A stretch of DNA of 11,118 bases from IMG/VR virus record IMGVR_UViG_2713896789_000009. The stretch is one strand, 5' to 3'. Position numbers and translations under genes: made by a program. Shown here piece after piece: positions 1,948 to 3,099 of the stretch; the first letter of the stretch is position 1; each line of letters begins with the position of its first letter. This DNA is from a virus (lineage: Duplodnaviria; Heunggongvirae; Uroviricota; Caudoviricetes). Under the pieces are notes generated by a model that made no database searches, was not told where the DNA came from, and saw only the letters and a program-made list of their open reading frames with translations.

Positions 1948-2581
1948 TGTAAACATCTGTACTGCAGACCTTCAATCATTAATTAGAATGGATCCTGAAT
2001 TTAGGGGAATGGTTCAAAGAAAATTAGCTGCAGACAAAAATATTTTTGTAAAGCAACTCTATGAAGATTTAGACGACGCTATTCAGAATTTAGAAAATGA
2101 CAAACACTTCTATCAAGATGCTAAGTGGGGAGAGGACGAGCTAACAGCGTCGATCAAAAATTTCCTGAAAGGTAGGTTTTATGATGTTGAACATGATACT
2201 CAACATGGCGGTCACGTTGATTTATTAGTTAAACATCAATTCGGAAAATTCGAATGGATCGGTGAAGCAAAATTATGGAGAGGCCCCAAATCTATTCATA
2301 ATGGCTGGATTCAGCTAACCGAACGTTACGGCACGGGTACGTCACGTGACGATCATGGAGGAATTCTAATTTATATAAAGTCTGACAAATCAGCAGTAAA
2401 ATTCAATGAATGGAAAGAATTTTTCTCTACGACCGTTTCGGACGCAGAAATTGAAGCGGAAGGCTCTCCCCTCCGCTTTAAGAGTATCACAAAGCATCCA
2501 GCAACAGCGCTTCCATATCATGTAAGACACATGGGAGTATCCTTATACCATTACACTGGTAAAAAAACCGCTGACTCTTAA
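1940..2581 (+). CDS. Predicted PD-(D/E)xK-fold nuclease, gene C of the cassette (213 aa from the ATG at 1940)
   Basis: ATG at 1940 follows GGAGAG (1927-1932) and overlaps the stop of gene B (ATGAGTGA). The protein contains E65/E67 ... HVD94LLV ... EWIGE109AK111LW, the classic acidic-helix / D / ExK arrangement of restriction-endonuclease-like nucleases. The ORF track's longer start at 1877 would overlap gene B by about 70 nt and is less likely. Confidence 0.7.
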   Translation: MSDVNICTADLQSLIRMDPEFRGMVQRKLAADKNIFVKQLYEDLDDAIQNLENDKHFYQDAKWGEDELTASIKNFLKGRFYDVEHDTQHGGHVDLLVKHQFGKFEWIGEAKLWRGPKSIHNGWIQLTERYGTGTSRDDHGGILIYIKSDKSAVKFNEWKEFFSTTVSDAEIEAEGSPLRFKSITKHPATALPYHVRHMGVSLYHYTGKKTADS

Positions 2582-3099
2582 CTGGTAATTGCTATATATC
2601 CAGTCAAAAAACCTAAGGCTTTTTGCAATCTTTTACGAATTGTTCCATCTGAACATCCTTGTTGCTTTGCAATAGCACGAAGAGATAAACCAATCACGAA
2701 ATGAGCAACAATTAACTCATATTCTTGTTGCTTATATCTTTCTAACATAAGGATACTAATGTCAATAATTCGCCCTTCATCATTGCTGCACTGACGACGT
2801 GATTTTTTACCATGAGGAACAACATTTTTATATTTATCAGCTATTTCCTGCCAATCAATAGAACTATTACCAGCCACAACCCAAGCCCCCCAATCGTCTA
2901 AAATATCACATATATCAACATTACTATCCATCTGTTTTTTATTTTCTATTTTGAAATAACCAAGCAGCATTCTAGCCATTGTTGTTATTTCTATACTTGT
3001 AACTGACTCATAAGCATGAGGAGAAACAATTCTCTCATCACTTAATGCCCAATCACTAAGGTTTGCTATTTCCAACAATCGTTCTTTAGTTATTCCCAT
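2578..3099 (-). CDS. Phage antitermination protein Q family (QuuD/phage-82-Q-like)
   Basis: The translation contains WGAWVVAG, KSRRQCSNDEGRII and CSDGTIRKRLQKALGFLTGY, which align with conserved blocks I recall from E. coli prophage Q proteins (WGAWAA, KSRPQCCDDD, CSDTCIRKRLQRAIGFLEG). The ATG at 3099 follows GGAG; the ORF track's start at 3111 is a GTG without an SD. Confidence 0.7.
   Translation of the reverse strand: MGITKERLLEIANLSDWALSDERIVSPHAYESVTSIEITTMARMLLGYFKIENKKQMDSNVDICDILDDWGAWVVAGNSSIDWQEIADKYKNVVPHGKKSRRQCSNDEGRIIDISILMLERYKQQEYELIVAHFVIGLSLRAIAKQQGCSDGTIRKRLQKALGFLTGYIAITS

Follow-up and report, generated by a model that had tools for sequence, protein, structure and literature searches.

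In lambdoid phages the gene for the late antiterminator Q is, in the textbook layout, placed directly before the late promoter PR', the qut site and the terminator tR'. The DNA analysed here, an 11,118-nucleotide window of the virus record IMGVR_UViG_2713896789_000009 (Caudoviricetes), holds a Q-like gene that instead runs stop codon into stop codon against a convergent three-gene cassette (A-B-C). What, then, does this Q-like gene control? A first-pass annotation took it for the late-gene Q and proposed that the cassette had removed or displaced the late control region, as in a cryptic prophage, or was silenced on induction by Q-modified late transcription running antisense through it. Comparison with related phages and prophages points elsewhere. 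The Q-like gene reads as an additional gene of the nin region, and its probable binding element, a 10-bp palindrome, stands at the opposite end of the cassette, within the predicted cassette promoter. There the Q-like protein would repress the cassette upon induction, with read-through from the early promoter PR adding antisense interference, a reading that is given even chances here. The features on which the argument turns are the following (aa, amino acids; nt, nucleotides; ORF, open reading frame).

345–358, no strand assigned: T-tract and perfect 10-bp palindrome TGCGTACGCA (349–358), class 1, minus strand GCGTACGCAAAAAC (comparative)
348–377, plus strand: predicted cassette promoter, -35 TTGCGT at 348–353 (in the palindrome), 18-nt spacer, -10 TAAACT at 372–377
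431–1522, plus strand: gene A, 363 aa, first cassette gene (phrog_12777, unknown function)
1519–1947, plus strand: gene B, 142 aa (phrog_11490, unknown function)
1940–2581, plus strand: gene C, 213 aa, predicted PD-(D/E)XK protein (restriction-endonuclease fold; structure prediction, invariant residues)
2578–2581, no strand assigned: overlapping stop codons TTAA (ORF list, sequence, hairpin folding)
2578–3099, minus strand: Q-family gene of the long form, 173 aa counted from ATG at 3099, with a mechanical ORF that reaches GTG at 3111 (PF06530, phrog_79)
3100–3231, minus strand: conserved intergenic stretch upstream of the Q-like gene, right module flank

The minus-strand gene is indeed a member of a Q family, as first annotated. 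Its product matches PF06530 (E 3.8e-31; 107.9 bits against a cutoff of 26) and phrog_79, 'anti-termination protein Q-like' (E 2.9e-33), as well as the Q protein of phage 21 (Q21) in a PDB sequence search (E 4.7e-4). The AlphaFold2 model reaches a predicted local distance difference test score (pLDDT) of 80–93 over residues 62–173, and the top 10 Foldseek matches in the PDB are Q21 chains (probability 1.0, template modelling score 0.45–0.56), with sigma region 4 domains next. The C-terminal ~112 aa are accordingly modelled as a Q21/sigma-region-4-like domain. The N-terminal ~60 aa, where model confidence is low, form an extension missing from short (113–120 aa) late Q proteins. Residues 1–60 match another PHROG, phrog_3323 (unknown function; E 9e-15, positions 1–55 of 90), which suggests that the long form arose by fusing a small upstream ORF to a short Q.

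Relatives were drawn from viral contigs, E. coli genomes and exact-protein look-ups; none was found in species-representative genomes, for which the back-translated patterns were too specific. Among the relatives found by protein search, the long form (161–185 aa; E. coli and Salmonella) is a minority, most being 113–120 aa long and 55–60% identical to residues 60–173 of the Q-like protein. These short proteins are the sole Q of complete lambdoid phages, where they are positioned after RusA/DUF968. The Q-like protein thus belongs, as a long-form paralogue, to a large family whose usual members are short late antiterminators of Q21 fold. Pairwise ratios of nonsynonymous to synonymous substitution rates (dN/dS) of 0.18–0.30 among its variants indicate purifying selection on the gene.

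At the junction, the ORF list and the sequence concur on convergent genes with overlapping stops. The letters TTAA at 2578–2581 hold both stops in a 4-bp overlap, TAA at 2579–2581 for gene C and TTA at 2578–2580 for the Q-like gene, and the junction is, as had been noticed, too tight for a late promoter or qut. No terminator was found there by pattern scan, and folding gave no strong hairpin; early-operon read-through would therefore enter the cassette antisense. Such a junction is ordinary within this Q family. The 3' ends of other cassette types lie at -25 to +50 bp relative to the Q stop, and stop overlaps of 4, 8 and 25 bp were seen repeatedly, in independent cassette types. Further, the same Q-to-cassette junction, formed by a gene C homologue, occurs in complete phages with intact late genes. 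These phages carry a gene trio of 365, 140 and 211 aa whose third protein (P0134, on about 500 contigs) is 60% identical to C and whose first two are similar to A and B in size. The locus order is DUF968, short late Q, then C, B and A (convergent with Q), holin and terminase, and the 3' ends overlap by 25 bp. At locus L101, tblastn found no homologue of A or B and only C, at 31% identity.

Whether the Q-like gene is the late switch can be judged from its surroundings. The window is 99.7–99.9% identical to the ompW-adjacent prophage of E. coli 2013C-3181 and of enteropathogenic E. coli E2348/69. In both genomes, hokD, a small gene, DUF968, RusA and a 229-aa canonical late Q (PF06323, E 3.5e-91) lie left of the window on the strand of the Q-like gene, and tRNAs, holin and lysozyme genes follow; in E2348/69, from which a longer stretch was fetched, there are terminase, portal, capsid and tail genes as well. 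The layout is thus noncontiguous, running on the minus strand from the cro-like gene to the Q-like gene and then through hokD, DUF968 and RusA to Q, with plus-strand A-B-C in between. Directly 3' of the canonical Q there is a promoter-like TTGCAA-17-TATATT, and a terminator, CCCGCCGCCGAGCGGG-T7, stands ~60 nt beyond; the prophage therefore has a classical Q/PR'/tR' region, ~4 kb from the window on its left side. The Q-like gene itself lies in the nin region and not in the last-early-gene position directly before a late promoter and lysis genes. In addition, the late Q of prophages carrying the long Q-like gene varies, being of the PF06323, PF03589 or DUF1133 kind, and the long gene is therefore not tied to late control. 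Collectively, the Q-like gene is best described as an additional nin-region gene and not the late switch, and its identification as the late-gene Q gives way to the canonical Q beyond hokD, DUF968 and RusA.

The palindrome connects the Q-like gene to the other end of the cassette. TGCGTACGCA is a single copy in the window, beyond the cassette from the Q-like gene. All 15 long-Q loci (five cassette types) have one copy of it, perfectly conserved upstream of each cassette amid otherwise unalignable DNA, and two backbones without the Q-like gene lack it. A role as a CI operator was ruled out by there being a single copy in the window, and a role as a recombination boundary by its being a conserved island inside variable DNA and not at an edge. 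The proposal that late control was lost when the cassette inserted, leaving the prophage cryptic, or its variant in which the Q-like gene and the motif are functionless relics, can draw on a junction without space for a promoter or terminator, on the decay of the late block that accompanies the element in related phages and on an insertion sequence (IS) element elsewhere in the prophage. It is nevertheless the least credible account of the locus and is contradicted by comparison with related genomes. The best-matching genomes have the canonical Q, its PR'/tR'-like site and full sets of lysis and morphogenesis genes; the dN/dS values do not suit a relic; the palindrome is invariant in all 15 loci amid diverged flanks; and complete phages show the same junction.

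What the element does elsewhere is seen in the short-Q phages. There, a convergent cassette lies within 8–40 bp past the Q gene and, beyond the cassette and in the same orientation to Q as in the window, stands ...CTAAC GCGTACGC AAAAAC TATCG TAATCT G TTAAGAGTGGTyACTTCG.CACACAGCTTAA..., a late block followed by a hairpin/T-run terminator and the holin gene. The -10 of this late promoter could be TAATCT or TATCGT directly before G-TTAAGAGTGG, with no evident -35 consensus, and the late block of locus L022 matches no Rfam family. As the late block reads away from the cassette, Q-modified late transcription would not cross the cassette, contrary to what had been suggested. The idea of displaced late control fares better in part: a matching palindrome does lie beyond the cassette, at 349–358, but the PR'/tR'-like region of the prophage is present elsewhere. 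On the minus strand the window reads GTGCGTACGCAAAAACTATCTAACATGATGAGC, in which the element, A-tract and TATC are kept and the TTAAGAGTGG block and terminator are lost; both are absent from all five long-Q types. Although the class-1 element is present, the window thus lacks the combination of promoter, pause-inducing block and terminator.

A scan of viral contigs for GCGTACGCAAAAAC, which is a sample with many near-identical loci, gave at least 119 loci. An upstream PF06530 Q was listed for 66 of the 119, always on the strand of the motif. Among these matches the Q stop lies 0.6–3.0 kb from the motif in 64 of 66 and 22–128 bp away in the other two, and all intervening ORFs are convergent with Q in all but three of the cassette-bearing loci listed. 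About a dozen more matches have the full consensus in fetched DNA that stops short of the Q gene; the other matches listed are without the consensus and look like chance. A second GCGTACGC in L032 (position 26826) was likewise set aside as chance, having no A-tract and lying inside the annotated ompW gene beside the prophage.

Most cassette types, including those of L003 (~7880–7900), L013 and many short-Q loci, have a strong symmetric hairpin between the Q and cassette stops, flanked by A- and T-runs and thus bidirectional-terminator-like. In long-Q prophages such a terminator falls midway along the PR operon, before the late Q is reached. The viral contig L144 carries three tandem GCGTACGCAAAA elements with a ...TGTA.TCTGAT... 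block behind each of them, the first element lying 128 bp after a cassette-less Q; this may be a multiplied late-control region.

Evidence on the nature of the element comes from a second scan, anchored on the conserved block GTTAAGAGTGGTYACT and hence independent of the palindrome. At 107 further loci, a ~10-bp palindrome 12–32 nt upstream of the block falls into discrete classes, and wherever an intact Q lies within the fetched DNA each class pairs with one version of the Q helix-turn-helix. There are at least eight classes; seven pairs are given below, and two further classes were each seen at one locus.

Palindrome CGCGTACGC: Q segment CSDGT[IV]RK.LQT
Palindrome TACGTACGTA: Q segment CCSDGYIGK.LQKAEG
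Palindrome TACGATCGTA: Q segment GCSDTCIGKRLQKAEG
Palindrome TACAATCGTA: Q segment GRSDCWVGRLLQKAEG
Palindrome GCGGTCCGC: Q segment K.[SD]EK.IRIE.Q
Palindrome TGTTATAACA: Q segment GISLNQVVIRLQKAEG
Palindrome TTCGTTACGAA: Q segment CSEGK.R..LMIAE

The two change together even where the surroundings are shared. L152 and L022 have a common backbone and late block, and in L152 GCACGGTCCGC replaces GCGTACGC while KDEKLIRIEIQ replaces CSDGTIRKELQ. The pairing is kept both at Q-block gaps of 3–44 bp, the classical layout, and at 0.6–3 kb. The window conforms, since the recognition segment of its Q-like protein, GCSDGTIRKRLQKA, is that of the class pairing with GCGTACGC, and 349–358 is a class-1 element. 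The match between palindrome class and Q recognition segment at every locus with a Q found makes a strong comparative case for the palindrome as the Q-binding element.

What lies between Q and its element is exchanged freely. The backbones PCN033 and M1/5, otherwise identical, have neither the Q-like gene nor the convergent cassette, and small same-strand nin genes occupy the space between the conserved intergenic stretch (3100–3231) and hok/sok. The Q-like gene and the cassette are one module, present or absent together. Its left flank is conserved to about position 267 in all backbones, and the right-hand stretch occurs in about 2800 E. coli records; in those lacking the Q-like gene it stands ahead of different genes. 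No Rfam family matched 3050–3300. Just before the ribosome-binding site, at 3110–3125, lies the GC hairpin CCGCCCTTTCGGGCGG (minus strand GCCGCCC GAAA GGGCGGT, with a GAAA loop), which is without a T-run and boxB-like or module-boundary-like in look. In every case a convergent cassette stands 3' of the long Q-like gene, and five unrelated types share the same flanks.

Type 1: A-B-C
Type 2: DUF6731 and a 159-aa protein
Type 3: proteins of 309 and 182 aa
Type 4: NA37 and a 410-aa protein
Type 5: proteins of 352 and 493 aa

The 3' ends of these cassettes lie at -4 to +30 bp from the stop of the Q-like gene, whose homology declines across the last ~15 codons and ceases at the stop codon; the exchange boundary is therefore placed at the extreme end of the gene, which accounts for the overlapping stops. 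The second gene of the DUF6731 cassette (L002, 7464–7943) weakly matches RexB (PADLOC, E 0.0015) and may encode a Rex-like membrane partner.

Counting the five types beside the long Q-like gene and at least 25 beside short Qs, the slot cassettes comprise 56 protein clusters; 43 representative slot proteins were bundled for domain and defence annotation. Matches to defence systems include KwaA/KwaB (Kiwa; E down to 2e-126), PDC-M53B, PDC-S42 and NsnA, and the slot also holds a C5-methylase with an AAA_15/21 ATPase, GmrSD_N, HEPN, RelA_SpoT, an SDH protease, NA37 and DUF6731. The slot between the Q gene and the element is recognisable from this content as an anti-phage hotspot. In the relatives sampled, Q and its binding site bracket such a hot-swappable convergent slot more often than they adjoin. 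Neither a description of the hotspot nor the palindrome in a relevant context was found in the open-access literature searched.

The window's own cassette has a candidate effector. B overlaps both A and C, and the overlapping gene ends are consistent with one operon. Genes A and B have no match in Pfam, NCBIfam, PADLOC or PDB sequence searches. Gene C was resolved through structure prediction, its PDB sequence search being blank; the model has a pLDDT of 92.8, and five residues, E65, H92, D94, E109 and K111, do not vary among 39 homologues. On the grounds of this fold and these residues, gene C is predicted to be a PD-(D/E)XK nuclease, likely the nuclease effector of the cassette.

The position of the element suggests how the Q-like protein would act on this cassette. 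The predicted promoter, whose -35 falls in the palindrome, lies ~50 nt before the ribosome-binding site and ATG of gene A, with the transcript expected to start at about 383; in an alternative register, TTAGAT (337–342) and TATTTT (360–365), the palindrome is also within the promoter. The pattern TTGCGT or TTTACG, 17 +/- 1 nt, TAnnnT recurs in class 1, 3 and 4 cassette loci; for TTGCGT this spacing to a TAnnnT holds at nearly all true loci, and chance matches to the motif do not show the pattern. Of 48 loci with a cassette, 34 place the -35 of their best reverse-strand promoter over the element or the A-tract, whereas the reverse-strand promoter scores low in 13 loci where Q abuts the late block; the predicted promoter therefore travels with the cassette slot. 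The window would then carry a transplanted copy of the Q/slot/element module in the nin region, with the late-promoter block and terminator decayed and the late genes governed by the other, canonical Q further downstream. In the lysogen, PR would be repressed and the Q-like protein absent, so that the cassette would be transcribed from its own sigma-70 promoter. Upon induction, Q-like protein from the PR operon would bind TGCGTACGCA over the promoter and switch the cassette off, and PR read-through past the terminator-less overlapping stops would add antisense interference. The nuclease cassette would thus be on in the lysogen and off in lytic growth, and the phage's own development would be protected. 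The suggestion that the cassette is silenced on induction is retained in this form: late transcription would not be the agent, but antisense read-through of the early operon is plausible.

Under another reading, the cassette promoter would be switched on by the Q-like protein, whose sigma-region-4-like domain, bound at the -35 position, would recruit polymerase; A-B-C would then serve a lytic-phase function (host DNA degradation or competitor exclusion) and not lysogen defence. The element does overlap a poor -35 (TTGCGT, 3/6 matches), and Q21, with its fold similar to sigma region 4, makes contact with RNA polymerase (bioRxiv 10.1101/651190). Activation is nonetheless judged rather improbable. 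The TTG is kept at 17–18-nt spacing to a TAnnnT -10, and the promoter therefore looks self-sufficient; moreover, the Kiwa, RelA/SpoT, HEPN and methylase-ATPase genes of the hotspot are typical of constitutive lysogen defences.

An unlikely, though somewhat better placed, possibility concerns the opposite direction of transcription. Here the Q-like protein would bind 349–358, load on polymerase at a weak leftward promoter and read through the hok/sok terminators to DUF968-rusA and the late Q, restoring operon continuity across the cassette in a two-Q cascade. The orientation of the element relative to the Q-like gene is that of true late regions, and the window type keeps AAAAACTATC and a -10-like TAACAT. 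Further, other long-Q cassettes close with the bidirectional-terminator-like hairpins (dG -18 to -22); such strong hairpins would block PR read-through and so create a need for re-initiation. However, the conserved TTAAGAGTGG... block and terminator of every short-Q late region are missing in the five long-Q types, and module-less backbones express the same downstream genes. No conserved leftward promoter was found beside the element in long-Q loci: a -10-like hexamer occurs at a suitable distance in two of the five types, and on that strand no such hexamer is kept at constant spacing.

Action in trans has also to be weighed. The Q-like protein might act on superinfecting class-1 phages, blocking or mistiming their late promoters, and share only its flanks with the cassette. 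Many co-circulating enterobacterial phages, including Shiga toxin (Stx) phages, use an identical GCGTACGC, and the N-terminal extension could change function. Yet the gene lies within the PR operon without a recognised promoter of its own in the promoter scan, and the retention of the element beside every long-Q cassette would be left unexplained, which makes this very unlikely.

Repression of the cassette by the Q-like protein itself has several points to answer, all of which weigh against it. Repression rather than activation is read solely from the position of the element over the -35 or the spacer, and in class 2 the best cassette promoter is beside the element and not over it. A weak leftward -10-like TAACAT lies by the window-type element, making residual promoter activity toward hokD possible. 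The conserved stretch 3100–3231 could hold a promoter, in which case the Q-like gene might not be silent in the lysogen. A-B-C fits no known defence family, save for a weak match of C to PDC-S54 in PADLOC. Finally, Q21 binds two direct repeats, not a palindrome (bioRxiv 10.1101/651190); the binding mode would therefore differ and would probably be symmetric.

Comparison with phage 21 marks out what the module shares with a characterised late switch. The Q21 module (PDB 6P18/6P1A; bioRxiv 10.1101/651190) consists of the Q gene, a Q-binding element, a sigma-dependent pause element and tR'. The window protein has the PF06530 domain with a Q21/sigma-R4-like C-terminal fold, and the short-form relatives have a DNA element upstream of a conserved initial transcribed block, a terminator and lysis genes. 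In contrast to Q21, sequence identity of the window protein is below 20%, a ~10-bp palindrome with an A-tract replaces two direct 8-bp repeats, and Q and element are usually 0.6–3 kb apart with convergent genes between. The window copy further departs from Q21 in its 60-aa N-terminal extension, its nin location and its lack of a late block or terminator.

The proposed outcome has precedents in phi80 taiEcA/atiEcA (PMC11364771) and 80alpha tha/ith (PMC11087260), where prophage defence genes lie antisense in lytic operons and are, as proposed or shown, off on induction. Silencing there is by antisense transcription and/or an inhibitor protein, whereas the main route proposed for the window is a Q-derived protein over the cassette promoter, with antisense transcription as an extra in the terminator-less A-B-C type. 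As for hotspots, those of P2/P4 (PMC9122126) and those from an E. coli pangenome screen (PMC9519451) likewise have conserved flanks around variable cassettes of 1–3 genes, with known defences and many unknowns. By contrast, the flanks here are a regulator gene and its own binding site and late promoter, and each incoming cassette would therefore fall under the lifecycle switch.

Among the Stx phages, textbook members have PR' directly after Q (PMC6266700). Stx2a_WGPS2 (NC_049941, 5001–10202; L157) instead has a convergent two-gene cassette (179 and 343 aa) in between, followed by the element, late block, terminator, a methyltransferase gene, tRNAs and stx2AB. Its Q is 88% identical to the short form and its GCGTACGC is identical; the window, by comparison, is without stx genes and without the late block.

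The window as a whole is recognisable as belonging to a Rac/Qin-like lambdoid prophage, of which it represents the early-right (PR) operon. Minus-strand genes run in the order Cro-like gene, YdaT, O-like replication protein, DUF977, two small genes and Q-like gene; on the plus strand are an S24 repressor, ydfABC, DicF, dicB and an exonuclease gene. A full-length Rfam match of 75.8 bits identifies the DicF small RNA (8148–8199, plus strand) ahead of dicB in the leftward operon; by it the prophage is recognised as Qin/Rac-like despite its integration at ompW. In the Rfam scan of the window only sok and DicF matched. The remaining features lie at the left end.

1–84, minus strand: 5' portion of hokD, truncated at the end of the window (RefSeq annotation of identical regions)
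79–289, minus strand: hok promoter-like site (289–261) and hok mRNA leader/sok, left conserved flank (Rfam, promoter scan)

The sok/hok leader model RF01794 scores 117 bits against a gathering score of 59 (E 9e-27), with hokD annotated alongside. One small gene (3536–3790; 23536–23790 in L001) is a RefSeq pseudogene with an internal stop in E2348/69 and is intact (84 aa) in 2013C-3181 and the window. At 9454–9503, 50 consecutive N (masked or unresolved bases) fall within the exonuclease gene region and give X residues in the ORF translations there.

APSE phages have a variable toxin cassette region. In these phages of Hamiltonella defensa the 'Q protein', P5 in APSE-4 (EU794051), shares 52% identity with the short-form Q, and the APSE variable region might be the same kind of slot.

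Taken more broadly, the Q antiterminator may double as an off-switch for the defence slot in many enterobacterial lambdoid phages, including Stx2a-converting ones, with the Q-like protein of the window as a repressor-only version; this extension is put forward tentatively, the balance being somewhat against it. One protein–DNA contact would then turn late genes on and prophage defence off, and the long Q-like protein, having lost its antitermination target, would be a Q domesticated as a lifecycle-coupled defence regulator. For the family, the pairing of Q and palindrome offers a sequence-level code of at least eight classes for this Q subfamily, and a nin-region gene bearing the label 'antiterminator Q family protein' is not to be equated with a late switch. 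The flanks, a PF06530 Q and a palindrome with a late block, would make this a new and easily recognised lambdoid defence hotspot, with many uncharacterised cassettes including A-B-C. In at least one Stx2a phage, Stx2a_WGPS2, the split Q/element arrangement appears to control stx, the expression of which would depend on it. Finally, the arrangement suggests a simple route by which prophages may escape their own defences on induction.

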